From Candidatus Omnitrophota bacterium (GTDB lineage Bacteria > Omnitrophota > Gorgyraeia > Zapsychrales > Zapsychraceae), in the NCBI GenBank assembly GCA_029261055.1, contig JAJDCA010000044.1, positions 77,867 to 141,866 on the forward strand: DNA of 64,000 bases. The letters run 5' to 3'. How positions within the stretch are numbered: the stretch's first letter is position 1; each line of letters begins with the position of its first letter. The notes below the pieces were generated by a model that did not search any database, was not told the DNA's origin, and worked only from the letters and a program-made list of their open reading frames with translations. Positions 8,325 to 60,308 of the stretch are shown here, piece by piece. The position numbers were made by a program, and so were the translations under genes.

Positions 8325-8353
8325 GTTGTGATGAATATTAAGAAAGGTTGATT

Positions 8354-17324: not shown

Positions 17325-17328
<4 letters not shown>
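17011..17328 (+). CDS. nucleotidyltransferase (MNT-type antitoxin)
   Basis: FGSRAKGN...ESDMDVF = GS-x(n)-DxD minimal nucleotidyltransferase motif; ATGA overlap with the atpG stop. Confidence 0.75.
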
Positions 17329-19130
<1,802 letters not shown>

Positions 19131-40461: not shown

Positions 40462-40513
40462 TATGTGGTATACTTAGAATGTACATAATTCAGTACATAT
40501 GAAAGGAGGACAC

Positions 40514-40768
40514 ATGAAAACATTAACCGCAACAGATGCCAGAAATAACTGGTTTAAACTTCTTAAAGATTCTGTTAGCAGTCATCGTATTTATCAAATA
40601 ACTTCCAAAGAGGGTGATGCTGTTATTCTTTCTAAAGAAGATTATGAAAGCCTCATTGAAACACTTGAACTGCTTTCAATTCCAGGGATGTTAAAAAGTA
40701 TTAAACAAGCTGACAAAGAAATTGCAGAAGGAAAAACCCGAACAATGGAAGAGGTTTTTGGTGATTAA
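40514..40768 (+). CDS. yefM: YefM/Phd-family antitoxin
   Basis: MKTLTATDARNNWFKLL...AVILSKEDYESLIETLE is a canonical YefM sequence; AGGAGG SD at 40504-40509; the palindrome atgtac-ataattca-gtacat sits just upstream. Confidence 0.8.
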   Translation: MKTLTATDARNNWFKLLKDSVSSHRIYQITSKEGDAVILSKEDYESLIETLELLSIPGMLKSIKQADKEIAEGKTRTMEEVFGD

Positions 40769-41027
40769 AAAAACGCATTATGCTATTAAATTCAGCAAGC
40801 AGGCTGAAAAAGATTTACAAAAATTAGACCCCCACCTGAAGAAAAAACTTCATGATATTCTTAAAAAGATTATTGCCGTTAATCCTTATGAGGGAAAAAA
40901 ATTAATTGGTGAACTTTTAGGGAATTATTCATATCGTTTAAGCTTCAAAGATCGCATAGTTTATGACATCATAGAAAATAAAAAAATTATTAATCTTAAA
41001 AGGGTAAGAACTCATTACGGTGATTGA
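40761..41027 (+). CDS. yoeB: YoeB/RelE-family toxin
   Basis: About 89 aa basic protein ending ...LKRVRTHYGD; overlaps the antitoxin stop; GTG start (track gives a longer TTG/ATG-extended ORF from 40722). Confidence 0.7.
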   Translation: MIKKTHYAIKFSKQAEKDLQKLDPHLKKKLHDILKKIIAVNPYEGKKLIGELLGNYSYRLSFKDRIVYDIIENKKIINLKRVRTHYGD

Positions 41028-43939: not shown

Positions 43940-44212
43940 CTAAAGAGAACGATAAGCCGTTCGCCTATGTTCAATATTATAAATCTTTATAAGACATTTT
44001 TCATGATAAATCCAATACAAAATACGATAATCTCCGGATCGCTCTTTGCATAAGCCTTTTAAATCATCCGGTAAATTAGAAAGTTGGTGGTGAATTATCT
44101 GATTGGCATTTTCGGATAACCAATCAATTTTCTGCACAACTCTCGATTGAATTTCTTTATCAATTTTTTTAAATGATTTTTGTGCTTCAGGAAGGATAAT
44201 TATTTGATACAT
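43940..44212 (-). CDS. RelE/ParE-family toxin
   Basis: 90 aa; ...GDYRILYWIYHEKCLIKIYNIEHR conforms to the RelE/ParE C-terminal region; overlaps the upstream small gene. Confidence 0.6.
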   Translation of the reverse strand: MYQIIILPEAQKSFKKIDKEIQSRVVQKIDWLSENANQIIHHQLSNLPDDLKGLCKERSGDYRILYWIYHEKCLIKIYNIEHRRTAYRSL

Positions 44213-44403
44213 ATTTCCTTCTTAAATTCTTTCCAACTTTTTCCTTTGCCTTGCAAATCATCTTCCCGGGATTTACGCATCCTTTTGATAAAAGATGGAT
44301 TATGCGCTAAAAGCCAATTTTCTAGGTCGCTTTTTGAAGATGCTGTCTGAAAAACAGCTATTGGAAAAGTTATTGTTTTAGTTGCTTTCTTAGTAGTTGA
44401 CAT
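44200..44403 (-). CDS. putative antitoxin partner
   Basis: 67 aa, 13-nt overlap with the RelE-like gene. Confidence 0.45.
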   Translation of the reverse strand: MSTTKKATKTITFPIAVFQTASSKSDLENWLLAHNPSFIKRMRKSREDDLQGKGKSWKEFKKEICIK

Positions 44404-44836: not shown

Positions 44837-47800
44837 ATGAATATTTATCTCGAAAAAAGAAAGACCTGTTTGCTGTACCGCATTCTTGCCGCTTTTATTT
44901 GTTTCACCTTTATTTTTAGCAGCATCATACCCCCACAAAGGGCCCAGGCCCAGGTTATGCCTACTTCAGGAACCATTTTGAATCTACCGGTGCCGGGAAC
45001 CATGGTACCGGCAACCGATGCCTACCAGCCACCGATTATCCGTGGCGTAGCGCTCAACCCGGAAGATCCTCTCAACCTTAATTTCATCATCGACCGTGGC
45101 GATAACAGATTGGAAGGCAAAGACTTAGAAAATGAATCCCAAAAACTTATCAAATATTTCCTGGCTGCTCTTACTGTACCGGAAGAAGAAATGTGGGTTA
45201 ACCTTTCCCCCTATGAAAGTGACCGTATCATCCCCAATACCTTTGGCGACACCGAGATGGGGCGCGACCTTCTAGCACAAGATTATATGCTTAAACAACT
45301 TACAGCATCACTCATGTATCCGGAAGAAGAATTAGGTGAAGATTTTTGGGCCAAAGTGTATGATCGCGCTTATGAAGAGTATGGCACCACCGATATTCCC
45401 ATGAATACCTTTAATAAGGTCTGGATTGTACCGGAAGAGGCCGAAGTGTATGAATATGATGCCAATGCTGTGGTCACCAAAAGCCGCCTCAAAGTCATGC
45501 TGGAGGAAGATTATGTGGCCTTGCAGAACAATCTGGGTGTCGATGAATTTGGCCTCAATAGCCTTTCTGCCGAAGATGCCGGCATTACCAGTGGCATTTC
45601 GTCTGAAGTCGTCCGCGAAATCATCCTGCCAGAAATCGAATGGGAAGTGAACCATGGCAAAACATTTGCCAACCTACGCCAAATTTACAACTCCATGATC
45701 CTGGCCACCTGGTACAAAGAAGCCCTGACAGAAAGTTTTTTAGGTCAAGTTTATATCGATCAAAACAAAACCGAAGGCGTGGACACCCAAGACAAACAGA
45801 TCAACCAAAAAATCTACAAACAATACGTCGAAGCCTTTAACAAAGGTGTGTATGACTATATTAGAGAAGATTATGACCCCACCACAGAACTGATTGTGCC
45901 GAGACGATATTTTTCCGGGGGAGCGGCAATGAGGACGAGTAAAAAATTAAACGTTATCGATATCGCGATGCTCCCTACTAGTTTTATTAATCGTGCTGCT
46001 GCTGGTGTAAGCGAATTACAACTACCAATACTTGAAGACACCGAAACCGTGCCGGACGATCTTACGGAAATGGATAAAATTGATCCTCTCGCTAGCGAAA
46101 GCGTGCCGGATTATCTTTCAGAAACAGATATCCCAGTACAGCCATTGACTCTCTCCGAAAAATTCTCTGAATTTACTAAATCTCTCGAGGGAGGAGATAT
46201 TGTCAGTGCTTCAAAAGAACTCGGAGAACTAAAAGGTCATATTGATAATCTACAGAATGTTGAACGTAAAAAAGTAGCTAAAAGTTTGAATAAAAAATTA
46301 AATAACTTTAAAAAACAACTTGATAAACTCGAAAAAATAAACAGAACTATTATAAAGAAAAGAGTCCGCGACATAAAAGATTTAAATGCTATGCCAATGG
46401 GCATAGAAAATAGCGAAGAAATTAACTATTTGATCAGCAAATTAGAAAATTTTCTGGCAACTGGAGAATTAAATTTAAAAGAATTAGAAGAATTCAAAAC
46501 ATCTTATAGCACCTCAGGGTTTAAAAGCATACGTGAATTTATTGCAAACCACCCCCGCCTAGAAAAAGGATCTAAACTTGCTGTTTTAACTGTTATCGCG
46601 CTAAGCACCGCCGTGTCCATGGGCGCTGCGGCAACTCAAAGTGAAAGCCCACAAGAATTTATCAAAAATTTAATTAATGTAGACACAGATCTAAACAACA
46701 CAGCCGTAGCTAATCTCCTTGAAATCCCTGAAATTAAAGAACTCGGCGAACGGTATCTCGCGGGAGAACTCACAGAAAAAGAATATGAAAGTCTAGCCGA
46801 AACCCTAAAAAATGGAAATCCAGAAATACAAAAACTTATTGTCACAATTTATCAAACCGCCCTTGCCCAAAATATCGATCTTGATGAACAGGGAAGCGAA
46901 GCCTTACAAGAAAACCAAAGCAACCCTCTAAGTCTCTTTGCACGTACAGAAAACTGGGTGTCCAATCAGCTTGATTCAGACCTTGAGGCTGGAGCACTTA
47001 CTGAGGATTCCCCTGCAAACATCCATACCTTAAATCCCCAAGAAGTGCGTAACGTTATGGATGGACTTGATGATATTGATTATGAAGAATCACCTGATGC
47101 AATTAAAAAAGCTATTAAAGTTGTAACTAATTATCTTAATTTGGACTCAACCGACCCTACTAACGATAAAGTTACTCAAGGTAATATTAAAATAGCTTTT
47201 AAAATTTTGGATAAAATTGTTGATCAGAATGAAAATAACATGACTCCTGATATGAAAGCAGCAACATCAGCAGATTTAATATCGTATATACAAGACTCAC
47301 AAAATTCAGCTGACAATATAATTTCTGCTATAAAATTGGTGTCTGAAATCGGGGGGGAAAATAATTTAGAAGAATTAAAAACATTTAATAAAGATTTAAA
47401 AAATAAATACGAGAAATCAGTAAATGAAGGCAAACAATTAGAACAAGAACTTAAACAACTTAAACGAAATTTAGATAATAATCCTTATCCCAAGGGGAGC
47501 TTCGCACGTGATATAGATCAAAATACTTACGATAATACATTGGAGAGTCTAAAAGTAAATCAAGATAATATTAAAAACTTAGATAAAATCATCGACACAA
47601 TGGGTGATGTTATTAACGACATAACTGAACGGGAAGGAATAGTTGATCACCAGAAGATTAACGAACTAAAAAGCCAAGAAACTAAACTACAAAAAGAAAT
47701 CGAACAATCAGTTTCAGAAGTCAAGCAATTAAAAGAAGAACTCAAGCAACTCAAACAAAATTTAGATAATAATCCTTACCCCAAGGGGGACTTCGCACGG

Positions 47801-50800
47801 GATATAGATCAGAATACTTACGATAATACAAAAGATGCGTTAGAAGATAAAGAAGGTGACTTAAAAAAACAGCAAGACCAATTAAAAGTTGTTGAAAAAT
47901 CACTTAAGCAAATTGAAAAAGGTAACCAAGGAGACGGACTACTAACGCGAGGAGTTAAGGCCGTTACAGGTGCAGCTAAAACTGTGGTTAATGTCATCAG
48001 CGGGGATGATACACAAGAATCACCCACCGCTGAGACAATAGAAAAAATACGTGCTGATTTACAGAAAAAGGCGTTGTCAGACTTAAGATCTAATGAATCT
48101 AGTGTCCGGCGTGCAGCGGTGAATCTACTGAGTGATATTGGAGACGAAGAGGCTATAAAAAGACTCGATAAAATAGCAAACAATGACACAAACCCTGTAA
48201 TCAAAATCGAAGCTAGTACAGCTTTGGATAACATACAAGAAAGAGCTGGTGAACCTCCTTCGACAATCGCTACCGATGAAGTTATCAAGCAACTTGAGTC
48301 TAAACTGCAGCAGCTGGAAGAAGACGCCCCCCTAAACCCAGATGGCACGACCAAGACATTATCAGACTTTCCCCATCCCGGGGGGACGAAGGCGAACTAC
48401 GGAGACTTTATGGAATATGGCCGACAACGTGCTGCCATCGATGAATTACAGTCACAGATTGACGACCTTAAAGAAATTCTTGCCTCATTTACCACCGCAT
48501 CTGCAGGCGGCGAAGCAGCCGGAGGAGGCGATGGAAGCGGTGGTCCAGATGATGATGATAAAAAATCTAAAGAAGCTTTGAAAACACTACCTTCTGTTTC
48601 ACAAATAACAAGTACGCATATAGCAAATATAGAAAATTCATCAGATGAATCGGTAAAACAAGAGTCTCTTAAAGTATTAACTCGTGCAGCTCTAGATGGC
48701 ATACTCTCTGAAAAAGATATTAAAAACGTGATAGCGACAATAGAGGAATTACCTACCCCGGATGGCATAATTGAAAAGGAACAGGCGTATACCATTAAGA
48801 TGCAAACAAAAGTTCTAGAACTTATGCAAGATATTTTAAACCGGATGGATTCTGATAATGATAGGCAGAAATCCCTGTCAACAGTAACAGAACTCAGCAA
48901 GTCTGATTTGGGAATACCTGCGAATTCTTCCGTAAACACACTTGGCACTGGCCAATTTGCTGGTAATATTGAGAACGTAAAGGATCTCTTTGTTGATAGC
49001 TTTAAAACGGCTGGAGACTCCTTGCCTGAATTAATGAAAATGTCTGCTTCCCCTACTAATACTCTTAGTAACCCACGCATTGGGAGTAGCTTTTTTTCAG
49101 AATCCGGCGTCGAAAAATTTGCTGACATTCCATTTGATTTAAATGATTCCTCCGACCGCTGGCTTCTCAATAAGGTTGTATCTTTTTTAGAAACAAATGT
49201 CATATCTTCCGATGTCGACGACTACTTCAAAACGAACATTATTAAAGCTTTAACAGCGTTAGGATTACCCCGAAGCATTGACGTTATATCCAGCATAGAT
49301 ACGACGGATATCGATCTAAAACAAGACATTGAAAAAACTATCACCACATTGCAACAACGCTGGGGAATAACTCCCCCCAGTAACATTGTTCCAGAAACTG
49401 AAGACCAGGCTAATACGAAACTGACAGAAAGACTTCATCAATTTGATAATTCTAAAGTTAGAGCCTTAACCCCAGACATCGTAAATGATGCTATAAAAGG
49501 AATGGATCATCCGGATAACGAAACAAAACAAACGGCCATACACATCATAGGGGACGTTTTGGGTTCGAAGATACCTGTCCCTGATGAGGTCATAGATAAA
49601 CTTATTGCAAGCACAGGCACCTCCACACCTGAACTGCAAGTGCCATCCTTTAAAGCGCTCTTTGAAGGAGCGCTAAACAATAAAATTTCGCAAGAAAATA
49701 TCGAAACAGTACAAAGTATGCCCTATGATCCAACCTCTGATGCGCAAAATAGAGATAGAGAAATTCTTATTGAAATTTATCAAGTGAAACAAAATATAAC
49801 GGATGTACAGATGAACAATGATGCACCGCTTGTTCAAAAAACAGCCATCACGGATTTAGAAGAAAAAATAAAAAAAACAACTGGTAGTAATATTCCAATA
49901 CTTAGAGATCGTCTAATACCCGAAGCCCTGGAAACCTTAGTGGCACAAACTTATAATCCGAATGTTGAGACCTCTGTTCGTGAACACGCTATCATCTCTG
50001 TAGGCAATCTAGCTGATTCAACTCCTGGTATTACGCATGAAAATTTTAAAAACTACATACCGGAAGGATCTAATAAGTCTATTGGAGAAACATTAACCTA
50101 TCTGGCAACAAATGATCTGGATGAAGGCGTTCAAAACGCAGCCAAGGAGGCTCTGAAAAAAATTGATCTTGTTTCGACTGCTCCAACCGTGATACTATCT
50201 CCAAAACCAGTAGAAATTCCCACACCAACAGAAAATGCAGAAATCAAAGCACAAATCAACGAAATATCCTCAATAGATCCTACAAATTTCACAAGCGATG
50301 ATATCACAGCTGTCGTAGCAGGAATTGAGCATCCTACAAAAGAAATACAAAAAGCAGCTGTGGAAAAGGCGGGGGACATAATTGAAAATAATAAAAAACC
50401 TCCTCAGCAACTGGTCGATGGATTTATAAAGAACCTAACAGATGATACGGGGAAGAATAATATTCCAATATATAATGAATTACTCAATGCCATAAGGCAA
50501 GATAAAGTACTTACCGACCAGGGTGATACTCTTCGTAAAATTGCAAACGATGATAATGATCCGCGCAGCTCTGTAGCAAAAAACTTTCATGATGATTATC
50601 TCTTGCACCAAGAAATTTTTAAATTATCCTCAGATTCATTAAAAGACAATAGTTTTGGGCGAACGACTATTATATACAATTTACAAGAATTTATAATTAA
50701 TAGCCAAACACTTGAGCACCTCTCGGGAATAGATGCTATTGCCAAGTTGGCAATTGACGATAGTAATTTCCTTGTGAGAGAAGTAGCCGTAACTGTTTTG

Positions 50801-53800
50801 GGCAGCCTCACCGATGTCGACAGGTTTTCAAATATTAAAGATCATAAACCCGAAGGAGTAGGTGGTACGATCGAAGATATTGTCAAAGCTATCGCAACCG
50901 CCAGCATTGAGTCAGGATTAACCAACGATGAAAAAGAAGCGGCCCAAGATCTAAAAACAGCGGCCCAGGAGGCATTAGTTAAGCTTCAATCATCTACTCA
51001 AAGCGCGAAACCGACAATAACACCGGGGCCGACAGAAACAGCATCGCCTACACCAACACCAGGACCATCCCCAACTCCAAACGCGACTCCAGATCCGACA
51101 TCAACTGATGATACGGCTAATTTAGAAAACTTTAATACTAAAATTTCAAAAATTAATGATGAGATGAAAATTTTTAAACATAAATATGCTAACAAGGATA
51201 TACCTGAAGCTGAAGCACAACAAATACAAATACTTTTAAAAGAAATGAAAAATCTTGTCAAAAATACAATAGAAAAAGGCAACGTAACTCCAGAAATGGT
51301 AGATCAAATAAATACTACTAGTAGTACATTTAATATTCACGGTGTTTTGAAAGTCGATTCGCATGAAGACTATACAGGAACACACGGGGAAAAATTAAAT
51401 ACAAATTTAGTTATATATCTAGATAATGACGGATATATTACTGCAGACAAAATTGAAATACCTGATCCTTCACCTACTCCGAGCGCAACACCGACATCAA
51501 CACCAATAGTGACACCAACACCAACTCCGGAAGGTAACATGCAGCTATTGGCGAACATATATGCAAACATGAAACCCAAGGATGCGGCAAACCTTATGTC
51601 TAACATGGATACTGAAACAGCAAAAAAAATGATCCCTTTAATGCCTCAAGAAAAAGTAACAAAAATTCTTGAATTGATGGATCCCCTACAAGCAGAAAAT
51701 ATCAATCCTCAAACAACACCAACCACGGAAGCAGAAATCGGCTCTAAAATTGACGATTTACTTGAGTCTCTTAGCAAGCCGATTGATGGTAAAAAAGATC
51801 CAAAAAATTATGGTACAGACAAAAAGCCCATGTTTGCCCTTTCTATCGTGGGAATTTCTCCTGACACGCAATCGCGAGAAAGCGTTATCGATGAACTTGT
51901 TGTATTGGCTAAGAATAACCCAGAGGCTACGAATCAAATATTAACGAAGCTTTTTGATCACAAGTATATCCAAAGTCATCTCGACAAAAACAATCAATCC
52001 TTAGCCCCCTTGATCAGTATACTTGAAAGAATTGATCCAGGATTAAAGCTGGTGGAGGATAAAATTCAAACGTTAATCAATTCACCAAACCTGGATGTTT
52101 CCACCGCTGGAAATATTTTTCTTCTCTCGCAAACCCTTGAGGTTAAAGGGATTTATGAAGAGTTTAAAAATGTATTGAGTGCAATAGACCGTTCAGACAC
52201 AAACAGTTTAAAAAACGATATAGAAGCACTATTGCGTGAAGTATTTCAATTTTTCTATGATGACAATCAAGACAAAAAGGATCTCCGCATTGAAAAAAAT
52301 GTACAAGATAATATTGTAAAAATTGGCAACCTACTCAAAGATATGGCAAAGCAGAATCCTGAGCAACTGACAAGCGCTAAGGCGTATGACATCATCGATA
52401 ACGCGGATTATTTAACCCTGGACGATAAAAATAGAATCAAAGCTCAAATTTCAACTGGGCAGGGTTATTATGCTATTGTATATTTACTTCTAGTCGGCGT
52501 CGTCGGCAGTATAAGCGGAGCTATTTTAATACAAAGAAAGAAATCTTTTAACAAAAAGCTAGCCGCTATCCATGACGCTATTGTAAAGGACAAACATTAT
52601 TTAACAGCCATAACTCTTTTTAATGATGAAAAATTTAAGGGCCGAAAACGCCGCCAAGTCATACAACATATTCAAACTATTGCTGATAATCAAAACAATC
52701 AGTTTGAACGTACTGTACAGTCACTCGCTCAAAGCATTTTGCAAGAAATTCAATCTGGCGGTGATGATAACGACCTTAAAAAAATTGTTGTTAAGACGCC
52801 TTCCAATACCTCAACTGATGGCGGAGAATCAGAGGAGAAAACTGCTGTAGACTTGATCTCTCGGGGAGAAACTCAAATTACTGAGGTACTGAACCTTGTT
52901 AGTACTTCAAAATGGACAAACGAGAAAGCGACTTGGATAAGAAGCAGTGCGGCACTTTTGCGTAAATTAAGAAATAATTTTGAAAAACAATTAACCTTAC
53001 TTAATCCCACAGATGCAAAAAAAGCAAAAATTATGTTAATGTCTCAACTTAAAACTCTTTCTAAATATTCAAACCTACAATGGACGAAAGAAAATTTTAA
53101 AAATGAAAAAAAATTCTTAGAATCAGTCGTTAACACTTATCAATCTTCGATTGAATCGAGCACACAATTTTCCATACATCAACAACAGCTCCAAACTATT
53201 AGTATGCTTAACACCTTATTCCTCTTTATGGGACGAACACATGAGTTGCCTCATTCTGAAATAACCTTAGAGCCAAAAGAGAAAATTGTGGATGGATTTA
53301 CAGGCTTACCACCAGAGGAAGTGACAGAAGTACATAAAGATATTTTCTCTATCCTCAATGATTGGGCGGTTGACACTGTTGTTGGTAAAGCAGCTTTAAA
53401 AGTACCGGGTTTTGCTACGAAAGACTCTGTTATTGGAATTGAATATAATGGAGAGGCCTTTGCTATTCGTATGAAAGAAAATAACAAGCATGAAGGTATA
53501 AATGTTGTTGTGGGTGGTAAAAAATTTATTGTCCCAGTATGTCCTCTTTGTCAATATGTCGCCTTTGACGCAGATGATCTTGCCAAAAACATGGGGTTTG
53601 AAGGAGAAGATGTGGTTGGCTTTGTTTCCGGACTTTTACGGCAAACTGGCCTTAATCATCCAAATGGTTTCGGTGTAATGCTTTTAGGTGAACGTAGTTC
53701 ACAAAATTTGATTTCCTTACACAAAAGAATGTTTCTCACCGGCCCTAACAAAGGAGAACCACTTAAGGTCCATCCAATTACACTCACAACATTAAATGAA

Positions 53801-54517
53801 TGGATTCAATCATATCCAGAAACAAAAGTATTAACTGATACCGGCTATTTAGACAAAGATTATAGTGCAGAAAATCCTTATAAATTAAAACATCAAAAAG
53901 ACTATGTAGTTGAGATAGGGACAAAAACAGTTGCTTTTTCTCAGGATTATCTTCAAAAATTACATAAAAAAATCGGAAAAAATATTGAAAAAATACAAAC
54001 AAAAAATTCCGGTTTTTTATATATCAAATTCAAAAATAATAAAAATATCCCCGTTTTTACTAGCGATAAAGAAGGTCAAATAACACTTCCTAATTTTATT
54101 GCTCTTCGGGAACCTTGGAGAACTAATCTTCATCCTGAAACCGAACTTTTCGATTCTGCCATGATCAATATCAAAAACGCCCCCCAAGAAGGTGGTATCA
54201 ACCTTAACATGGCGGCGGCGCAGTTTAAGAGGGTAAAGGATCAAAACGGTGGGGTGGCGCCTTTGTTGAGCAATCAGGAATTGCTCAATCTAAATATTCC
54301 TGGACTGATTCCGAAGCTGCGTAGCCTGACACCATTTATCATTCCACCCGGACTCCCAGCCCTCATCGGCCCAACCGGTTGGTTAAATACTGTACCGGGA
54401 GACAGCACAGATACAACCATCCCCGACCAATTCTCCGCCCTGGGGCCTATGGAGAAAAGACAGCGGTTAATCCTGGTTTCACCCAAGCAATCTTTTGTAA
54501 CGCATGTTATAGGTTAA
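44837..54517 (+). CDS. giant secreted paralog P3 (3226 aa): conserved N-terminal family domain, coiled coils, HEAT-like repeats, MgtE-N-like segment, Pro/Thr linkers, one TM helix near aa 2540, conserved C-terminal motif
   Basis: Single intact ORF in the track; AGGAG SD at 44822-44826; signal peptide ...SSIIPPQRAQAQV; the N-terminal 340 aa align with P1/P2/P4. Confidence 0.85.
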   Translation: MNIYLEKRKTCLLYRILAAFICFTFIFSSIIPPQRAQAQVMPTSGTILNLPVPGTMVPATDAYQPPIIRGVALNPEDPLNLNFIIDRGDNRLEGKDLENESQKLIKYFLAALTVPEEEMWVNLSPYESDRIIPNTFGDTEMGRDLLAQDYMLKQLTASLMYPEEELGEDFWAKVYDRAYEEYGTTDIPMNTFNKVWIVPEEAEVYEYDANAVVTKSRLKVMLEEDYVALQNNLGVDEFGLNSLSAEDAGITSGISSEVVREIILPEIEWEVNHGKTFANLRQIYNSMILATWYKEALTESFLGQVYIDQNKTEGVDTQDKQINQKIYKQYVEAFNKGVYDYIREDYDPTTELIVPRRYFSGGAAMRTSKKLNVIDIAMLPTSFINRAAAGVSELQLPILEDTETVPDDLTEMDKIDPLASESVPDYLSETDIPVQPLTLSEKFSEFTKSLEGGDIVSASKELGELKGHIDNLQNVERKKVAKSLNKKLNNFKKQLDKLEKINRTIIKKRVRDIKDLNAMPMGIENSEEINYLISKLENFLATGELNLKELEEFKTSYSTSGFKSIREFIANHPRLEKGSKLAVLTVIALSTAVSMGAAATQSESPQEFIKNLINVDTDLNNTAVANLLEIPEIKELGERYLAGELTEKEYESLAETLKNGNPEIQKLIVTIYQTALAQNIDLDEQGSEALQENQSNPLSLFARTENWVSNQLDSDLEAGALTEDSPANIHTLNPQEVRNVMDGLDDIDYEESPDAIKKAIKVVTNYLNLDSTDPTNDKVTQGNIKIAFKILDKIVDQNENNMTPDMKAATSADLISYIQDSQNSADNIISAIKLVSEIGGENNLEELKTFNKDLKNKYEKSVNEGKQLEQELKQLKRNLDNNPYPKGSFARDIDQNTYDNTLESLKVNQDNIKNLDKIIDTMGDVINDITEREGIVDHQKINELKSQETKLQKEIEQSVSEVKQLKEELKQLKQNLDNNPYPKGDFARDIDQNTYDNTKDALEDKEGDLKKQQDQLKVVEKSLKQIEKGNQGDGLLTRGVKAVTGAAKTVVNVISGDDTQESPTAETIEKIRADLQKKALSDLRSNESSVRRAAVNLLSDIGDEEAIKRLDKIANNDTNPVIKIEASTALDNIQERAGEPPSTIATDEVIKQLESKLQQLEEDAPLNPDGTTKTLSDFPHPGGTKANYGDFMEYGRQRAAIDELQSQIDDLKEILASFTTASAGGEAAGGGDGSGGPDDDDKKSKEALKTLPSVSQITSTHIANIENSSDESVKQESLKVLTRAALDGILSEKDIKNVIATIEELPTPDGIIEKEQAYTIKMQTKVLELMQDILNRMDSDNDRQKSLSTVTELSKSDLGIPANSSVNTLGTGQFAGNIENVKDLFVDSFKTAGDSLPELMKMSASPTNTLSNPRIGSSFFSESGVEKFADIPFDLNDSSDRWLLNKVVSFLETNVISSDVDDYFKTNIIKALTALGLPRSIDVISSIDTTDIDLKQDIEKTITTLQQRWGITPPSNIVPETEDQANTKLTERLHQFDNSKVRALTPDIVNDAIKGMDHPDNETKQTAIHIIGDVLGSKIPVPDEVIDKLIASTGTSTPELQVPSFKALFEGALNNKISQENIETVQSMPYDPTSDAQNRDREILIEIYQVKQNITDVQMNNDAPLVQKTAITDLEEKIKKTTGSNIPILRDRLIPEALETLVAQTYNPNVETSVREHAIISVGNLADSTPGITHENFKNYIPEGSNKSIGETLTYLATNDLDEGVQNAAKEALKKIDLVSTAPTVILSPKPVEIPTPTENAEIKAQINEISSIDPTNFTSDDITAVVAGIEHPTKEIQKAAVEKAGDIIENNKKPPQQLVDGFIKNLTDDTGKNNIPIYNELLNAIRQDKVLTDQGDTLRKIANDDNDPRSSVAKNFHDDYLLHQEIFKLSSDSLKDNSFGRTTIIYNLQEFIINSQTLEHLSGIDAIAKLAIDDSNFLVREVAVTVLGSLTDVDRFSNIKDHKPEGVGGTIEDIVKAIATASIESGLTNDEKEAAQDLKTAAQEALVKLQSSTQSAKPTITPGPTETASPTPTPGPSPTPNATPDPTSTDDTANLENFNTKISKINDEMKIFKHKYANKDIPEAEAQQIQILLKEMKNLVKNTIEKGNVTPEMVDQINTTSSTFNIHGVLKVDSHEDYTGTHGEKLNTNLVIYLDNDGYITADKIEIPDPSPTPSATPTSTPIVTPTPTPEGNMQLLANIYANMKPKDAANLMSNMDTETAKKMIPLMPQEKVTKILELMDPLQAENINPQTTPTTEAEIGSKIDDLLESLSKPIDGKKDPKNYGTDKKPMFALSIVGISPDTQSRESVIDELVVLAKNNPEATNQILTKLFDHKYIQSHLDKNNQSLAPLISILERIDPGLKLVEDKIQTLINSPNLDVSTAGNIFLLSQTLEVKGIYEEFKNVLSAIDRSDTNSLKNDIEALLREVFQFFYDDNQDKKDLRIEKNVQDNIVKIGNLLKDMAKQNPEQLTSAKAYDIIDNADYLTLDDKNRIKAQISTGQGYYAIVYLLLVGVVGSISGAILIQRKKSFNKKLAAIHDAIVKDKHYLTAITLFNDEKFKGRKRRQVIQHIQTIADNQNNQFERTVQSLAQSILQEIQSGGDDNDLKKIVVKTPSNTSTDGGESEEKTAVDLISRGETQITEVLNLVSTSKWTNEKATWIRSSAALLRKLRNNFEKQLTLLNPTDAKKAKIMLMSQLKTLSKYSNLQWTKENFKNEKKFLESVVNTYQSSIESSTQFSIHQQQLQTISMLNTLFLFMGRTHELPHSEITLEPKEKIVDGFTGLPPEEVTEVHKDIFSILNDWAVDTVVGKAALKVPGFATKDSVIGIEYNGEAFAIRMKENNKHEGINVVVGGKKFIVPVCPLCQYVAFDADDLAKNMGFEGEDVVGFVSGLLRQTGLNHPNGFGVMLLGERSSQNLISLHKRMFLTGPNKGEPLKVHPITLTTLNEWIQSYPETKVLTDTGYLDKDYSAENPYKLKHQKDYVVEIGTKTVAFSQDYLQKLHKKIGKNIEKIQTKNSGFLYIKFKNNKNIPVFTSDKEGQITLPNFIALREPWRTNLHPETELFDSAMINIKNAPQEGGINLNMAAAQFKRVKDQNGGVAPLLSNQELLNLNIPGLIPKLRSLTPFIIPPGLPALIGPTGWLNTVPGDSTDTTIPDQFSALGPMEKRQRLILVSPKQSFVTHVIG
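47437..47841 (+). repeat. internal tandem duplication in P3: two roughly 110-nt near-identical segments about 291 bp (97 codons) apart, encoding ...LKQLK(R/Q)NLDNNPYPKG(S/D)FARDIDQNTYDNT...
   Basis: Nucleotide and protein repeats seen directly; hand-derived coordinates are approximate (a few nt). Confidence 0.7.
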
Positions 54518-54572
54518 ATAGTTATCAAAATAAAAGAATGGAAGCTCATTAAAAATAGTGTATACTTTAAAT

Positions 54573-55046
54573 ATGAAAAAGTTACGAATATACATGGACA
54601 CATCAATTTACAACTTTGTGATTGCTGATGATGTTCCCCGCGAAAGGGAAGTCACATTAAAACTGATTGACGAAATTAAACATGGTAAATATGAAGTGTT
54701 TATCTCTGATGTTGTTGTACGTGAAATAAACGACGCCCCGGATAATATTGCGTTAAAATTACGAGATGTGATCAATGAGGTCAGCCCAACAGATATTCCT
54801 ATTGATGAAGAAGTGGAAACTTTGGCGGACAAATATGTGGCCGAAAAAATTATTCCTGAAAAATATCGCGACGATGCCCTTCATATAGCTGCAGCATCTA
54901 TTCATAATATGGATGTTATTGTTAGCTGGAATTTTAAGCATATTGTCAAATTAAAAACAAAAAAAGAAGTTGTCGGCATTAATTCATTAATGGGATATAA
55001 AGAAATTGAAATATATTCCCCTATGGAGGTTATTGAAAATGATTAA
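54573..55046 (+). CDS. PIN-domain protein (VapC-like toxin) cassette inserted after P3
   Basis: IYMDTSIY N-terminal Asp motif, DDALHIAAAS and VSWNFKHIV PIN signatures; the TATACT at 54561-54566 lies only 6 nt upstream of the ATG, too close to act as a -10 for this start. Confidence 0.65.
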   Translation: MKKLRIYMDTSIYNFVIADDVPREREVTLKLIDEIKHGKYEVFISDVVVREINDAPDNIALKLRDVINEVSPTDIPIDEEVETLADKYVAEKIIPEKYRDDALHIAAASIHNMDVIVSWNFKHIVKLKTKKEVVGINSLMGYKEIEIYSPMEVIEND

Positions 55047-55209
55047 AGAACCCAAACCTATGCAAGAAATTCATGCCATTCAAGAAAAAATTTATGAGGA
55101 AGAAAAAAATCTAACAGTCAAAGAAAAATTAAATCGTCTTCATGAAAAAGCAATGGCTGCAAAAAACCGATTGGGGTTAAAAATTAAAACTTTATCTCAA
55201 ACTGTATAA
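55006..55209 (+). CDS. small charged helical protein, possible cognate antitoxin (overlaps the PIN gene end)
   Basis: 67 aa, coiled-coil-like, 41-nt overlap. Confidence 0.3.
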   Translation: MKYIPLWRLLKMIKEPKPMQEIHAIQEKIYEEEKNLTVKEKLNRLHEKAMAAKNRLGLKIKTLSQTV

Positions 55210-55216
55210 AAGGCTT

Positions 55217-55474
55217 CCGCCTTTGTTGAGTAATCAGGAATTGCTTAATTTGAATATTATCGGACTCGTGCCTGACCTCCGTAGTATCACACCATTTATC
55301 GTTCCCCCCGGACTCCCAGCCCTCATCGGCCCAACTGGTTGGCTGAACACTGTACCGGATGACACGCAAGACACAACCACCCACGACCAGTTCTCCGCCC
55401 TAGGGCCTATGAAGAAAAGACAGAGGTTAACTCTAGTTTCGCCAAAACGATTCTTTGTGGCGAATGTTGTATAA
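55217..55474 (+). pseudogene. orphan duplicate of the last 85 codons of P3 (about 85% nt identity to 54255..54517), no upstream gene body
   Basis: Direct nucleotide comparison: LSNQELLNLNI.GL.P.LRS.TPFI.PPGLPALIGPTGWLNTVP...FSALGPM.KRQRL.LVSPK... Confidence 0.65.
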
Positions 55475-55592
55475 AGTGCAATTATCCAGCCTTCATTGGC
55501 TAAACTGATTACCCATTTCCACAATTTCACCGACGAGATATATCCTAAATTCCAAAATTATCGACCAAGAAATAAATTGGCGCAGCGCCTTG

Positions 55593-55607
55593 AAATATGG
55601 CATACTT
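55593..55607 (+). promoter_or_regulatory. second copy of the AAATATGGCATACTT motif, 39 nt upstream of the P4 start
   Basis: Exact match to 44699-44713. Confidence 0.4.
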
Positions 55608-55645
55608 TTACTAAAGTTATAAAACCATAATACAATTTTAGAACT

Positions 55646-58600
55646 ATGAATAATTATTTACATTTCAGACAAAAAAATTTAGGTTATCGTATTTTAGCTG
55701 TTTTTGTGTGTTTTACATTTATAGCTGCTACGCTGACACCGCCGCAATACGCCCACGCGCAGGTTGCGCCTACCGCCGGGACTGTTCTTAATCTTCCTTT
55801 CCCCGGAAGCATGATTCAATCGACCGATGCGTTTACGCCTGTTTCTCTGTGGGGCATAACGCTTGATCCTCAGGATCCATTTAAATTTTATTTCACACTC
55901 GATAAAGGGCATACCGGTTTATCCGGTGAGGATTTGGAAGCGGAGGCGACACAATTGGCGAAATATTTTCTGGCGGCCTTAACCGTTCCGGAAGAAGAAA
56001 TGTGGGTAAATCTTTCGCCGTATGAAAAAAATCGTATCATTCCGCAAAGCTTCGGGGATACCGAAATGGGACGTGATCTATTGGCCCAGGATTATCTTTT
56101 AAAGCAACTCACCGCCTCGTTAATGTATCCAGAAGAGGATATTGGGGAAAATTTTTGGGAACGCATTTACGCCAAAGCCTATGAAAAGTATGGGACAACC
56201 GATATTCCGATGGATACGTTTCACAAGGTCTGGATCGTGCCGGAGCGTGCGCGTGTGGTGGAGGAAGGTAACAGTGCGTATATTGTGGATAGTTATTTGA
56301 AGGTGATGTTAGAGGATGATTATGTTGCTGCGCAACATAATCGTGGCGCGTCGCTCGTGACTCGTGACTCGGAAATAAAATCAAATTTGAAACGCGCCAC
56401 GCGTCACGAGCGACTAGCGACGAACCTTATCCGCGAAATAATCATTCCCGAAATCGAACGCGAGGTCAATGAAGGCGCAACATTCGCGAAGTTACGGCAG
56501 ATTTACCAATCCATGATTCTGGCCACATGGTACAAAATCCGCATGGAAGAAAGCCTGCTCGGTCAAATTTATGTCGATCAAAACAAAACCAAAGGTGTCG
56601 ATACGCATGATAAAAAAATAAATCAAAAAATCTACAATCAATATATCGCCGCCTTCCAGGAAGGCGTTTACGACTACATCAAAGAAGACTACGACCCAAT
56701 CACCCAAACCATTGTCCCGCGTAAATATTTTTCGGGGGGATTTTCTGGAAAACTAAGAAATTTCCTTATTATTATGAGCGCTACAGCAGCAATTAGTGCG
56801 GGCATCATATTCTCCAATTTAGGAATATCCAACGCAGGTACTTTTGATAGCCCAGGAAAAGAAACAGTTGCTGTAAGTCTGGTTAGTACTTCAAATAAAG
56901 GTCCTTCTACAATTAGAGATAGAAATAATGAAATACGTAAAAAACGCCATTCTAATAAAACCACTGTTGTTCAAAAAAAGGAAACCTTAAAAAAACCCCA
57001 AGAACAGAGTAATCCAATAAAAAACCTTACTTGGCAATTTAATGACAGTCTCAATGAAATAACAAAAAATAAGAAACAGGTCTCATCAACAACTGTAATT
57101 CAGCCCAATGATCCGTTGACTCCACTCGCAGATAATAAAATAACGCCTGAAACAAAAACAGACGACAATCAAGAAATTTCGAAACCGAAAGTGACAGTAG
57201 TTGATGAACCTCAGGATAATAACCTGAATGAATCAAATGAAATAAAAGTAACCGAAACATCGATAAAACAATCAAACGAAACCACTGAGCAGCCATCCAT
57301 ATCCGATGTCGACACTACTACTGAACAAAATGTCCAAACCACTCAAAATGATACTCTGGAAATCCAACCCCTGTCCATAGAAACTGACACTACGAAAGAG
57401 GAAAAATCCTCTTCAGGAAGTGACATACAAATTACAGAAACTATCAAAGAACCTACTACCAGCACCCAAGAACTAGTAAACCAATTTAAAAAAGATATTT
57501 CCGGAAACATTGATATTGAAGAAAATAAGCTTGCTGCAATACCTATTGCTCAACATTTAAAAGACAATCCTACTGATTGGGATGAATTTGCAAATATGGT
57601 TTTAACTGACCCAGATTATGATACGATCACCAAAATACTTCCCAATTTGTATTCGGTAGTTGATTTTGATAAATTGGAAATTTTACTTAAAAATCTTTCC
57701 GAAAGTCTATACGGCTATTGGAATTCCGTATTACAAAATAAGGCCACGAAAATACTCGAAGACCTCCAGCAGAAAGAATTCGACAGGATAATAAATAACT
57801 TCGTTAGTACCATTATTAATGGTGAATTAAATGATTATGACACTCACGAATACCCATTGATTGCCTTCGTAAAAAAACATCGCTTTCTATACCCAAAAAT
57901 GCAAGACACCTTATCTAATTATGACAATCAAGCAGTTAGAAAAATTTACCAACAGGATATTCTTCCGGAATTTGAAAATAGTGCAATCAAGACTATTAAA
58001 AATAAAGTACCGGAAAATGTCGACAATAAAGCCTCACAATTTATTAAAGAAAGACTTCCTGGTGATGAAGTTGAATCCATTAATATCGATATCAATAACC
58101 TTATGCCTTCCGGAGGTGTGGGGGAAACCTTATTAACAAATTATTTAAAAGAAAAAGGCATATACCTAATTTCTCTATTGTTAGGCGTAGGGAGCCTTGG
58201 CTTTTTTATATTGATTTGGGGGAAAAAATGGATATCAGAATTTTTTATGAAAAGAACATCTGTTAACTCTACTACATCAAGAAATATTAATAAAACATCA
58301 AACAAACAAATGCAAATTAATCCTATCAAAACCAATTTTCCACCGAATAACTCTCCAAAATCTATTGAAGATCCTAATAATGCACCTACTTTTCTAAATA
58401 CAATTCAACGTAAACCTTCTTGGATCATTGATGTACCGTCATCGATTTATGATGTACAAATGAAATTATCCCAAAAAAATATCAAACTAAAAAATGATTT
58501 ACTAAATATCATTGTAAATGTGGCAAAACCCACCAGATCTGATCTAAATACTGTCAAAGCTATCAAAATAGCACAAAAACTTGATTTTCACATTGCAAGC

Positions 58601-59590
58601 GATGTCTTGTATTATTTGATACTTAGAGAAGGGGACAGTGATGAAATTAAAAATGTATTTAAAGGCATTGCCAAAATAGCCAGGTTTATCCTTGAAGAAA
58701 GTAAAATTGAGAAGACATATTTTGACTCATTGTTGAAAGGTACTGTTAACGAATCTGCACGTGGAATAACTCCAGAAATGATTACTGTTTGGATAAACAA
58801 TTTAACGTCTTCTGATGTTAAAATAAATCATGAAGCAGCCGATCACCTTATTGAAGTTGTCGCAGGGATGACCACTGAAAGTAGTACAACGTTGCTGCCA
58901 CAGGAAAAAATTTCACAAATTATTGCAAATCTAAATACTCATTCTCCAGGGACTGTTTTTTATTCAAGCATGGTTCTGCGCGCATTGCTTTACAAGAGTA
59001 TTTATGTGATTAAACAATTGCAGAATAATAAAAATGAAAAAACCAATTTAGTTTTGAATGATGCTATCGACCAAATTGAAATTATCCAAACACGCGGACA
59101 TAATGCAATTGTTAATGATAAAAATACAATGCCTTTAAGGTTACCTTTCCTAAATGGTTACCCATCAGAATTAAAAAAGGTGATATCCATGGAAAAATTA
59201 AGGAAATCTAATATTAGAAATCGAGCAGTCACTAATCGATTAGATGAAGTAGTGAAGCATGCTGACGATCTGGCTGTTGATATTGCCATGCACGTAAACC
59301 AAGACGAAGAGTTAGGCTACGGTGGTATCAACCTGGACCGTGCAATGATGGATTTTGTGATTGAGCGGGATGCGGAAGGGATGCCATTGCCGGTCAGCCA
59401 ACAGCCAGTGGAGCATATCCGTATGAATCTGGAAGGTTTCCGACCGATCGTGGAAATCGCTCCGTTGATCTTGCCGGCGTTCTTAAGTTTACTTGATCAA
59501 AACGCCCCCAACACACATCCCAACCAGGATGAACTTTCCGCCCTAAGCCCCGTAGATAAAAAAAATCTAATAAACTCCGCAGCATTTTAA
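55646..59590 (+). CDS. giant secreted paralog P4 (1314 aa): conserved N-terminal family domain, Ser/Thr/Glu-rich low-complexity region, two hydrophobic segments, conserved C-terminal motif
   Basis: Signal peptide ...TLTPPQYAHAQV; N-terminal alignment with P1-P3; C-terminal GGINLD...LPVSQQPVEHIRMNLEGFRPIVEIAPLILP motif. Confidence 0.85.
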   Translation: MNNYLHFRQKNLGYRILAVFVCFTFIAATLTPPQYAHAQVAPTAGTVLNLPFPGSMIQSTDAFTPVSLWGITLDPQDPFKFYFTLDKGHTGLSGEDLEAEATQLAKYFLAALTVPEEEMWVNLSPYEKNRIIPQSFGDTEMGRDLLAQDYLLKQLTASLMYPEEDIGENFWERIYAKAYEKYGTTDIPMDTFHKVWIVPERARVVEEGNSAYIVDSYLKVMLEDDYVAAQHNRGASLVTRDSEIKSNLKRATRHERLATNLIREIIIPEIEREVNEGATFAKLRQIYQSMILATWYKIRMEESLLGQIYVDQNKTKGVDTHDKKINQKIYNQYIAAFQEGVYDYIKEDYDPITQTIVPRKYFSGGFSGKLRNFLIIMSATAAISAGIIFSNLGISNAGTFDSPGKETVAVSLVSTSNKGPSTIRDRNNEIRKKRHSNKTTVVQKKETLKKPQEQSNPIKNLTWQFNDSLNEITKNKKQVSSTTVIQPNDPLTPLADNKITPETKTDDNQEISKPKVTVVDEPQDNNLNESNEIKVTETSIKQSNETTEQPSISDVDTTTEQNVQTTQNDTLEIQPLSIETDTTKEEKSSSGSDIQITETIKEPTTSTQELVNQFKKDISGNIDIEENKLAAIPIAQHLKDNPTDWDEFANMVLTDPDYDTITKILPNLYSVVDFDKLEILLKNLSESLYGYWNSVLQNKATKILEDLQQKEFDRIINNFVSTIINGELNDYDTHEYPLIAFVKKHRFLYPKMQDTLSNYDNQAVRKIYQQDILPEFENSAIKTIKNKVPENVDNKASQFIKERLPGDEVESINIDINNLMPSGGVGETLLTNYLKEKGIYLISLLLGVGSLGFFILIWGKKWISEFFMKRTSVNSTTSRNINKTSNKQMQINPIKTNFPPNNSPKSIEDPNNAPTFLNTIQRKPSWIIDVPSSIYDVQMKLSQKNIKLKNDLLNIIVNVAKPTRSDLNTVKAIKIAQKLDFHIASDVLYYLILREGDSDEIKNVFKGIAKIARFILEESKIEKTYFDSLLKGTVNESARGITPEMITVWINNLTSSDVKINHEAADHLIEVVAGMTTESSTTLLPQEKISQIIANLNTHSPGTVFYSSMVLRALLYKSIYVIKQLQNNKNEKTNLVLNDAIDQIEIIQTRGHNAIVNDKNTMPLRLPFLNGYPSELKKVISMEKLRKSNIRNRAVTNRLDEVVKHADDLAVDIAMHVNQDEELGYGGINLDRAMMDFVIERDAEGMPLPVSQQPVEHIRMNLEGFRPIVEIAPLILPAFLSLLDQNAPNTHPNQDELSALSPVDKKNLINSAAF
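56344..56420. repeat. GC-rich palindromic element in-frame inside the P4 N-terminal domain: 12-bp inverted repeat gtcgctcgtgac(56350-56361)/gtcacgagcgac(56403-56414), outer tggcgcg/cgcgcca, tandem tcgtgac x2
   Basis: Seen in sequence; coincides exactly with the only segment of the family domain where P4 diverges from its paralogs (RGASLVTRDSEIKSNLKRATRHERLATN). Confidence 0.7.
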
Positions 59591-59643
59591 AACTTGACAT
59601 TTCCCTCTAATATGTCATACTTTGTATGACGGAGGTGATAAAA

Positions 59644-59898
59644 ATGAGAATAAATGCACGATTAGACTCAATTTATGAAGATAAAATCAAGCGCCTTGCC
59701 CATGAAACAAAAGAAAATGTCACAAATGTTTTAAAAAAGGCGATTGACTTGTATTATCAACATATCCAAAATACAACAAAACAACATACAGATATTATTC
59801 TTAAATCTACCTTTATCGGCTGCGCCGATGGTGACAAAAATCTTTCTAGCAATTACAAAAAACTCTTAAAAACATCATTAAAGAAAAAATGGTCATAG
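59644..59898 (+). CDS. ribbon-helix-helix (CopG-like) antitoxin
   Basis: MRINARLDSIYEDKIKRLAHETKENVTNVLKKAIDLYY; GGAGGTG SD; overlaps the PIN gene start. Confidence 0.6.
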   Translation: MRINARLDSIYEDKIKRLAHETKENVTNVLKKAIDLYYQHIQNTTKQHTDIILKSTFIGCADGDKNLSSNYKKLLKTSLKKKWS

Positions 59899-60308
59899 TC
59901 GATACTGGATTTTGGTTGGCTTTAGCGAACAATCGTGATCGATTTCATGATAAAGCGATTAACGTTTTAGAAAATTTATCCGAATCACTCATCACTACAT
60001 GGCCTGTTTTAACAGAAACATGCCATCTTTTGCTTAATCAACTAGGTCATCCCGCCTTGGAGAATTTTCTTCACATGTTTAGTCAAGGAGCTTTTTCTAC
60101 ATTTCCTTTAACGGATGAACATGCTTCACGGATAGAAAAACTTATTAAGAAATACAAAGATCTTCCTATGGACTTGGCTGATGCCTCCTTAGTGATCCTT
60201 GCTGAAGAACTGGGCCAAGGAAGAATTCTTTCAACGGATTTAAGAGATTTCCACACATATCGATGGAAACAGCATAAACCTTTTAAAAATCTTCTGATTG
60301 AAAATTAA
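59889..60308 (+). CDS. vapC: PIN-domain toxin (VapC-like)
   Basis: MVIVDTGFWLAL N-terminal motif, ...ILSTDLRDFHTY C-terminal motif. Confidence 0.75.
   Translation: MVIVDTGFWLALANNRDRFHDKAINVLENLSESLITTWPVLTETCHLLLNQLGHPALENFLHMFSQGAFSTFPLTDEHASRIEKLIKKYKDLPMDLADASLVILAEELGQGRILSTDLRDFHTYRWKQHKPFKNLLIEN

Follow-up and report, generated by a model that had tools for sequence, protein, structure and literature searches.

A toxin-antitoxin cassette between direct repeats of a host gene end in an Omnitrophota genome

Chromosomal toxin-antitoxin (TA) operons are extremely mobile yet encode no recombinase, and their movement between genomes is poorly understood. The locus described here lies within 64,000 nucleotides (nt) of DNA from a Candidatus Omnitrophota bacterium (GenBank assembly GCA_029261055.1, contig JAJDCA010000044.1, positions 77,867 to 141,866 of the forward strand; hereafter "the window", in whose own numbering all positions are given). 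It consists of a compact cassette, with genes for a PIN-domain toxin and a putative antitoxin, that stands between two direct repeats. The first repeat is the 3' end of P3, a gene for a giant surface protein of an Omnitrophota-specific family, and the second, which we call the orphan, is a homologous gene end with no gene body attached to it. The reading that we prefer, and to which we would give about an even chance, is that the cassette came in together with a homologous gene end, to which it was joined, and was integrated by homology-anchored insertion-duplication, displacing the resident end of P3. The features of the locus are as follows.

44837..54517 (+): P3, an open reading frame (ORF) of 3226 amino acids (aa) belonging to an Omnitrophota-specific paralog family
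54258..54517 (+): repeat copy 1, formed by the final 85 codons of P3 with its stop codon and corresponding to the second two-thirds of its C-terminal domain
54518..54572 (+): left end of the cassette, a leader of 55 nt that is rich in A+T and contains a palindrome resembling a promoter/operator, GTGTATAC
54573..55046 (+): gene for a VapC-like PIN-domain toxin of 157 aa (150 aa in the public annotation, which has the start at 54594)
55039..55209 (+): gene for a helical partner protein of 56 aa, overlapping the PIN stop by 8 nt; a putative antitoxin gene, located 3' of the toxin gene
55210..55217 (+): 8-nt junction between cassette and orphan
55218..55474 (+): repeat copy 2, the orphan, with 84 intact codons and a stop codon, homologous to the end of P3
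55475..55645 (+): spacer of 171 nt ahead of P4, with promoter-like hexamers at 55590-55636
55646..59590 (+): P4, the next paralog, 1314 aa, whose C-terminal domain is ~33% identical to that of P3

Described systems that the locus resembles

Several well-described systems share one or more features with this arrangement. As in type II VapBC modules, the gene pair combines a PIN fold bearing an acidic quartet, for which VapC toxins are the best structural matches, with a two-gene overlapping operon that is probably autoregulated, and it is found at high copy number and with a patchy distribution. Unlike these modules it is toxin-first, the reverse of the usual order; its 56-aa partner has no recognisable DNA-binding or antitoxin domain, and the PIN protein of the window, taken alone, is below the Pfam PIN threshold (E = 0.004), although PF01850 is matched by 33 of 34 homologues.

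With regard to the repeats, a precedent is found in the icd gene of Escherichia coli, where insertion of e14 or phage 21 into the 3' end of the gene brings in a replacement end and leaves an icd' pseudogene. The window locus resembles this type in having an intact gene with a homologous but diverged 3' end, a displaced native end downstream as a direct repeat, and differences between the two ends that are mostly synonymous. It differs in that the unit is 700 base pairs (bp) long and carries no integrase, and in that the loci with such units have no core site in common, no motif being shared by the repeat edges in 11 loci. As a candidate integrase element the locus was therefore rejected: the displaced end is present, but an integrase within the unit and a conserved core site are both absent. 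More broadly, no recombinase gene was found among the flanking ORFs that were scanned or that have precomputed Pfam matches; the neighbours include a ParE toxin-antitoxin pair, a radical SAM gene, P4, a VapBC pair, an aminotransferase gene and a gene for a protein of the metallo-beta-lactamase fold.

A dedicated recombinase is unneeded in Campbell-type insertion-duplication, in which a single homologous anchor gives rise to direct repeats in the order anchor, insert, anchor, as in the window. Insertion-duplication and homology-facilitated illegitimate recombination, which occur in naturally transformable bacteria, are known mainly from laboratory constructs and transformation experiments, and to our knowledge neither has been reported as a means by which TA cassettes move in nature. 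A full-text search of the literature likewise returned no description of TA cassettes flanked by gene-end repeats.

The layout is also reminiscent of the orphan modules of contact-dependent inhibition (CDI) and Rhs loci, in which displaced 3' fragments lie 3' of a full-length gene and start inside a conserved coding region, and the original prediction had likened the locus to the displaced C-terminal modules of polymorphic toxins. On such an account P3 would carry an exchangeable C-terminal effector, the genes downstream would be immunity or accessory genes, and the orphan would be a displaced alternative module; one related cassette, at locus L121, does lie inside a genuine Rhs orphan array, where a YYYRARY core is repeated. 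In the window, however, each end encodes one and the same conserved non-toxin domain (80% identity) instead of a toxin of its own, and ~2,300 clusters have this domain conserved at their C-terminus. The search for toxin domains was negative, there is a single orphan and no array, and a cognate immunity logic is lacking: only the spacer to P4 follows the orphan, and the genes in between form a self-contained PIN pair that occurs in unrelated gene contexts across loci and is an autonomous cassette, not an immunity gene for P3. The likeness is thus one of architecture only, and we regard membership of a polymorphic-toxin-type locus as very improbable.

Integron TA cassettes, too, are small promoter-bearing units bracketed by direct repeats, in which TA pairs stabilise their surroundings, but the repeats of the window are host coding sequence and attC is absent. 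A possible attC at the junction was rejected, since its AAAGGC-TTCC-GCCTTT hairpin is no better than those of shuffled sequences (z = -0.79) and at most 10 nt lie beyond the stop. A GTTGAG[CT] motif is found inside the repeat, without an R''/L'' partner structure, and intI was not found among the flanking ORFs examined. The two copies do not behave as the variable and template repeats of a diversity-generating retroelement either, their mismatch spectrum being ordinary and not confined to adenines, and no reverse transcriptase was found among the flanking ORFs examined.

The repeats, the cassette and the divergence of the two copies

The repeat search returned a single direct-repeat family, with copies at 54258-54511 and 55218-55471 that are offset by 960 nt and 81% identical without gaps; by blastn the two copies are 81.6% identical over 255 nt (E = 6e-67). 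The left edge of the repeat is sharp, similarity between the copies beginning at CGCCTTTGTTGAG in an ungapped base-by-base comparison, and on the right the homology runs up to the stop codon of either copy and ends there. The orphan is in frame at 55220-55471, with 84 sense codons and its own stop codon at 55472-55474, and its protein is 80% identical in amino acids to the end of P3, which speaks for homology and against chance similarity. That the terminus of P3 recurs downstream without a gene body had been claimed in the original prediction, and its coordinates proved right to within 3 nt; the homology is as claimed, while the stated identity of about 85% was slightly high. Because the homology of the copies stops at their stop codons, the 171-nt spacer that follows the orphan is probably the original intergenic region 3' of the gene to which the orphan end belonged.

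The orphan begins at the 'PLP/PLL' position of the C-terminal domain and is without the first ~22 residues of that domain (GGINLN..KR..G), and it retains all five of the columns that are invariant across the orphan and four paralog C-termini. Its lack of a gene body is evident from an in-frame stop upstream at 55178-55180 and from the absence of any ATG or GTG; the sole start-like codon of the frame is a TTG at 55223, with an AAGG motif 9 nt 5' of it. A simple promoter scan found no promoter-like site for the orphan, no annotation source that was checked contains it as a gene call, and no Rfam families were found in the region. As a side observation, the orphan frame is open from 55181, 13 codons ahead of the repeat, and thus shares 55181-55209 with the final 9 codons of the 56-aa ORF; slippage of the frame in that stretch would join the 56-aa partner protein to the orphan domain, and inspection of the sequence revealed no canonical slippery heptamer in this interval.

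One might suppose that the orphan is functional and kept by selection, either as a silent donor for switching of the P3 C-terminus or as a small protein made from the TTG at 55223 or by frameshift fusion with the 56-aa ORF. The intact 84-codon frame and its five retained invariant columns agree with this, as do the AAGG motif ahead of the TTG and the open frame that overlaps the end of the partner ORF, and the unusual base composition of the C-terminal regions of P3 and P4, described below, may indicate unusual recombination there. These features have to be set against the absence of an ATG or GTG, of a promoter-like site and of any gene call, against the missing start of the domain, and against the fact that this is the sole such orphan found among ~100 genes of the family. 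Moreover, simulation shows that an intact frame is expected in about 1 in 3 cases even under neutrality, and the comparable orphan at locus L151 carries stop codons. We consider a selected function for the orphan quite improbable.

As the source is a metagenome-assembled genome, an artefact of assembly or a chimera of strains also has to be considered. The arrangement is, however, found in an independent Logan assembly of run SRR15505515 (L004), which agrees with it at 100% identity over 3 kb that include the locus. The two copies have no stretch of more than 29 identical nt in common, a length that we judge insufficient to mislead an assembler, which makes an assembly artefact unlikely, and analogous arrangements are present in contigs from many unrelated metagenome projects. 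An artefact is scarcely credible in the light of these findings, and the repeat arrangement is genuine.

The 700 bp between the repeats are taken up by the leader and the two small genes, the pair that the original prediction had recognised as a PIN-domain gene with a small overlapping ORF and that can now be described as a PIN-type toxin-antitoxin pair (54573-55046 and 55039-55209). Three pairs of contigs have only the cassette in common: L123 and L128 (94% identity over 705 nt), L101 and L108 (90% over 698 nt) and L128 and L154 (86.5% over 689 nt). The similarity in these pairs starts 45, 55 and 29 nt ahead of the PIN ATG, respectively, and ends between -1 and +10 nt past the stop codon of the partner gene; the segment between the copies in the window, 54518-55217, spans -55 to +8 on the same scale and is one cassette unit and nothing more. 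Sharing of the cassette alone, with the same end points, argues for a discrete mobile unit. No conserved terminal motif or inverted repeats were seen at the cassette ends. The palindrome in the leader may act as a promoter/operator; palindromic -10-like motifs recur in the leaders of related cassettes, and a simple promoter scan found no consensus promoter in the leader of the window.

The assignment of the PIN protein relies on its predicted fold. The AlphaFold2 model has a predicted local distance difference test (pLDDT) score of 89.6 and a predicted template modelling (pTM) score of 0.84, and its top Foldseek matches in the PDB are the VapC toxins 5ecw, 3zvk, 6a7v and 5x3t (prob 1.00); a sequence search of solved structures with the protein or its profile gave nothing significant, so that matches came from the fold search only. 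Residues D9, E51, D101 and D114 are invariant or nearly so among the homologues, of which there are more than 1000; where a name is given, it is that of a VapC-family or PIN-domain protein, with Omnitrophota, Brocadiaceae, Zixibacteria and others as sources. Judged by its modelled fold the protein is a member of the VapC/PIN toxin class, with an atypical gene order and partner. The pair is toxin-first and translationally coupled: in 76 of 81 homologous cassettes the PIN gene runs into an ORF of 40-90 aa, the overlap at the PIN stop being 4 or 8 nt in most cases, and the partner ORFs form one family in 76 of 76. An identical type of gene pair, PIN plus partner, is present in L001 and L003. The 56-aa partner has no match in Pfam, NCBIfam or PADLOC and belongs to no antitoxin family that could be matched; we infer that it is the antitoxin. 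Carriage on plasmids is limited to four distant homologues of 26-36% identity (three from Leptospira and one from Kovacikia), and there was no phage match. At L003 (1273-2304), the closest homologue of the PIN cassette (74% amino-acid identity) adjoins a gene of UPF0236 (PF06782), which we take to be a transposase-like family.

The manner in which the two copies have diverged bears directly on their origin. Their synonymous divergence (dS) is 0.63 and their nonsynonymous divergence (dN) 0.13, giving a ratio (dN/dS, or omega) of 0.20, and the 49 mismatches, which are distributed over the three codon positions as 13/9/27, involve all four bases and comprise 31 transitions and 18 transversions. 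It could be proposed that the insertion itself duplicated 254 nt of P3 in situ, by a very long target-site duplication or by template switching during replication, and that the downstream copy then decayed neutrally. The repeats do abut the cassette ends exactly, as target duplications do; near-identical repeats flank related cassettes at L142 (99.6% over 244 nt), L155 (100% over 28 nt) and L131 (97% over 34 nt); and the codon-position spread by itself is compatible with such an event (p ~0.26 by our own rough chi-square estimate). This alternative was simulated as an in-place duplication in which the P3 copy was under selection and the orphan neutral, run to 49 differences under three selection settings. 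The median omega of the simulated pairs was 0.45-0.50, the probability of an omega of 0.20 or less was 0-0.009, and the probability of such an omega jointly with an intact orphan frame was at most 0.003; these p-values are approximate, given that the mutation model was a simple one (kappa = 2, no composition bias) and that the domain is an island of elevated G+C content at third codon positions (GC3). In addition, the repeats at loci L099 and L156 have low omegas as well, no transposase is present, and we know of no bacterial insertion mechanism that yields 250-nt duplications. In-situ duplication is thus improbable. The low dN/dS and the simulation together argue that the copies diverged as two separately functional homologues under purifying selection, and they point to the orphan as the relic of a second, once-functional P3-like C-terminus, which worked as a gene end through most of its past, and not as a fresh target duplication.

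Related cassettes, the P3 family and the other TA modules of the window

A metagenome scan with the PIN alignment yielded 80 loci, at which the 1.5 kb upstream of each cassette were compared with the 1.5 kb downstream. A same-strand direct repeat between the flanks was found for 23 of 72 cassettes, compared with 2 of 72 in an inverted-orientation control on the same loci (p = 3e-6) and 3 of 81 for random 640-bp pseudo-cassettes (p = 2e-6); when near-identical contigs were collapsed, ~19 of 60 had a repeat (p = 7e-6). Repeats that hug the cassette on both sides, i.e., with the downstream copy 0-41 nt past the partner stop and the upstream copy close to the cassette, occurred in 7 of 72 loci and in none of the 81 controls (p = 0.004). 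Several loci are like the window in that the host gene 5' of the cassette supplies the repeat with its own 3' end. The loci with gene-related repeats that are referred to in the text are the following.

L120: the repeat is Pirin_C, 126 nt at 98% identity
L156: the repeat is an end like the tail of type IX secretion system (T9SS) substrates, 78 nt at 79% identity, omega 0.23
L099: the repeat is from a radical SAM/SPASM gene, omega of the copies 0.05
L151, 3783-4690: the host gene is an ORF of 1329 codons, truncated at the edge of the locus, that ends in a GGIDL-type motif
L127: the repeat is a gene end together with its terminator

At L099 the order of elements (1414-4499) is an internally deleted gene copy, in which the 5' 120 nt of the radical SAM/SPASM gene are fused to its 3' 250 nt, then PIN cassette A, the intact gene, PIN cassette B and a 46-nt third fragment; the PIN proteins of cassettes A and B are only 36.5% identical. 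At L151 the cassette starts 10 nt past the stop of the long ORF, and a decayed orphan of 47 nt lies 21 nt past the cassette; it is 85% identical to the gene end, begins at the GIDL motif and contains the stop codons mentioned above. The repeats at L093, L097, L115-117, L128 and L142 are non-coding or resemble repetitive extragenic palindromic (REP) elements, or enclose extra DNA. The footprint of insertion-duplication or homology-facilitated illegitimate recombination, namely an insert bracketed by anchor repeats of which both copies stem from functional homologues, is seen in the window (omega 0.20) and also at L099 (0.05) and L156 (0.23).

P3 is one of four paralogs in the window, two of which lie at some distance from the locus.

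1846-5049: P1
5096-8242: P2

The P3 protein begins with a signal peptide and a conserved N-terminal domain of ~370 aa, continues with a variable body that contains one transmembrane (TM) helix and DUF3179, and ends in a 'GGI[ND]L...' domain of ~105 aa. Members of the family are in general built in this way, with a hypervariable body, one TM helix and a C-terminal domain of the form 'GGI[DN]L...LQIKRD...PLP'. P1 to P4 have in common the ~370-aa N-terminal domain (54-62% identity) and a C-terminal domain of ~100 aa, their middles being unrelated. The N-terminal domain has 1385 homologues, and all those with a named source are hypothetical proteins, nearly all from Omnitrophota. Among clusters formed at 50% identity, 2298 are matched by the profile of the C-terminal domain, in full-length proteins (>1000 aa) invariably at the very end of the chain, and its consensus is GGI[DN]LNPALLDLQIKRDGNGIPLP..QQPI....I.GF.PVIINITP..NLPLLLG; P3 and the orphan carry one divergent subtype of it. 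No Pfam or NCBIfam model covers either domain, and neither the family nor the arrangement is described in two papers on the giant proteins of Omnitrophota. The position of the TM helix and the basic residues after it would place the C-terminal domain in the cytoplasm. The analysis thus delimits an uncharacterised and very widespread C-terminal domain of large Omnitrophota membrane proteins.

Some further features of these domains deserve to be recorded. The whole coding region of the C-terminal domain in P3 (~54140-54517) and in P4 (~59275-59590) is a GC3 island, with values of 0.5-0.7 as against 0.1-0.3 in the gene bodies, which starts ~10 codons before the GGINL motif; it is shared by the orphan (GC3 0.51) and not by the C-terminal regions of P1 and P2. 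In P0243, a protein of 311 aa, the first half of the C-terminal motif is duplicated in tandem (..DGSIQFDPAKVNIKIGRDEHGALLPLSQQN.. then ..GGIDFDPTNMNLQIKRDGRGVPLPLPQQN..), which suggests recombination within the motif. A 732-bp ENA contig (L005, 21-356) contains a complete C-terminal motif 14 codons after an in-frame stop and represents either another orphan module or a sequencing error. Finally, a G+C-rich imperfect inverted repeat, with 31-nt arms that are 81% complementary and 21 nt apart, is found in P4 at 56341-56423, within the coding region of the N-terminal domain and at an insertion relative to P3.

Genes of the P3 family often stand in tandem, as P1 and P2 do in the window, and pairs or triplets were found in at least 10 of 79 Omnitrophota loci (GTDB genomes). 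Such neighbours share only the N-terminal domain and a C-terminus of ~90 aa, with C-terminal identities of up to 81% (L054) and 92% (L056), and the spacers between neighbouring paralogs measure 14-214 nt. These arrays give rise to the main competitor of the reading that we prefer, namely that a further family member, Px, with a C-terminal domain ~80% identical to that of P3, once stood in tandem behind P3 and was deleted, the orphan being its stump: the cassette would have landed in the spacer between P3 and Px, and a later deletion, bounded on the left by the essential antitoxin gene, would have spared the last 84 codons of Px. The C-terminal identities within arrays are high enough for this, the range of paralog spacers fits the 171 nt that precede P4, the dN/dS of 0.20 is explained without any gene transfer, and one of the copies beside the cassettes at L099 is plainly what is left of a gene after an internal deletion. 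The deletion account nevertheless requires two independent events that both ended within a few nt of the cassette ends (at the P3 stop on the left and at +8 on the right), no trace of the 5' end of Px is present, and the roughly tenfold enrichment of direct repeats around cassettes is left unexplained where the genes concerned, such as those for pirin and the T9SS tail, were not found in tandem arrays here. We hold it to be a serious rival, if on balance an unlikely one.

The cassette is one of seven TA modules in the 64-kb window, which lie at the following positions.

8348-9068
17011-17723
30723-31360
40499-41027
43940-44403 (-)
54573-55209
59626-60308

The types represented are Phd/YefM with PIN_3, MNT with HEPN, Phd/YefM with PIN, Phd/YefM with a ParE/YoeB-like toxin, ParE with a small ORF, PIN with the 56-aa partner, and a 90-aa ORF with PIN. 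A PIN module lies directly 3' of each of P2, P3 and P4, and a ParE module also lies 5' of P3. The pair of MNT (nucleotidyltransferase) and HEPN genes at 17011-17723 is situated among ATP synthase genes; ORFs for the c subunit and gene-1 come before it, and the gene for the epsilon subunit comes after it.

A proposed origin and what it would mean

The prediction that a TA cassette was inserted by recombination within the conserved C-terminal coding region is the one that fits the evidence best. Homology-anchored acquisition is favoured because four lines of evidence converge on it: the cassette is a discrete unit free of recombinase, the repeats of the host gene abut it, the two copies diverged as functional genes do, and comparable repeats recur beside unrelated genes. 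In the sequence of events that we would propose, 54518-55217 is a compact selfish type II toxin-antitoxin cassette, made up of a leader, a VapC-like PIN gene and a coupled gene for the 56-aa partner, which would have travelled physically joined to the final ~85 codons of a homologous, P3-like gene, acquired from its previous neighbour. Recombination anchored in the gene-end homology would then have inserted it, either through Campbell-type single-crossover "insertion-duplication" of a small circle or through homology-facilitated illegitimate recombination of a linear fragment. The outcome would be an intact P3 with a functional C-terminus (copy 1), followed by the cassette and by the displaced homologous end (copy 2), now presumably a relic without promoter or start codon. 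Addiction to the toxin-antitoxin pair would disfavour the reverse recombination between the repeats, by which the cassette would be deleted. The order of events, the identity of the incoming copy, the recombination route and the stabilising role of the TA pair are all inferred. That seven TA modules occur in 64 kb, one of them within an ATP synthase operon, indicates that this genome often acquires such cassettes.

A number of observations weigh against the acquisition of a linked gene end, or at least limit what can be said of it. No close relative of the genome or of P3 is present in the collections searched, so that the pre-insertion state, the direction, the donor and the date are not observable: when the PIN protein, P3 and P4 were looked up as exact sequences, nothing but the source and the matching Logan assembly came up, all window proteins that were checked are singletons at 90% identity, a word-index search with the P3 C-terminus gave no match, alignment scans of genome and metagenome contigs with P3 and the orphan gave no confirmed relative, and the bodies of P3 and P4 have no orthologue in the 79 Omnitrophota loci. 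No other orphan ends were found in the protein family among ~100 genes of these 79 loci. The repeats that flank related cassettes are heterogeneous, about half of them being non-coding, REP-like or distant from the cassette, and long flanking repeats are absent around the other six TA modules of the window. Recombination at 81% identity with a longest identical block of 29 nt would be inefficient, although the copies may once have been more alike. A circular or linear intermediate of the cassette has not been observed, and the model itself offers no explanation for the sharp ends of a unit that lacks a recombinase.

The original prediction had further suggested that the direct repeats would allow excision of the cassette or a modular swapping of C-termini among paralogs. 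Excision by recombination between the repeats may be possible in principle. For an exchange between paralogs there is no support, since P1, P2 and P4 have C-termini only ~30% identical to that of P3 and the two copies themselves share no more than 29 identical nt in a row.

Taken by itself, the feature described here is a modest evolutionary scar, and it is the survey that hints at a more general route of TA mobility. We would tentatively suggest, while regarding it as doubtful, that the PIN-plus-partner family, and perhaps small TA operons generally, are recombinase-free mobile units that spread by means of a captured gene end serving as a homology arm; host recombination would duplicate the arm, displaced ends would remain as direct repeats, and addiction would penalise reversal. 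If this is true, a TA pair not only secures its own persistence but also causes the end of the gene next to it to be exchanged for a foreign allele, and the scar is still visible in about one third of metagenome cassettes. The locus and the survey together provide a concrete, testable footprint of this process, consisting of a discrete 700-bp cassette, repeats of a neighbouring gene end, and copies that each evolved as functional genes. Should the route prove general, TA cassettes would be more than passengers: they would bring about the replacement of alleles in their vicinity and the formation of gene-end pseudogenes, and orphan 3' fragments beside TA pairs could be used to trace past transfers.

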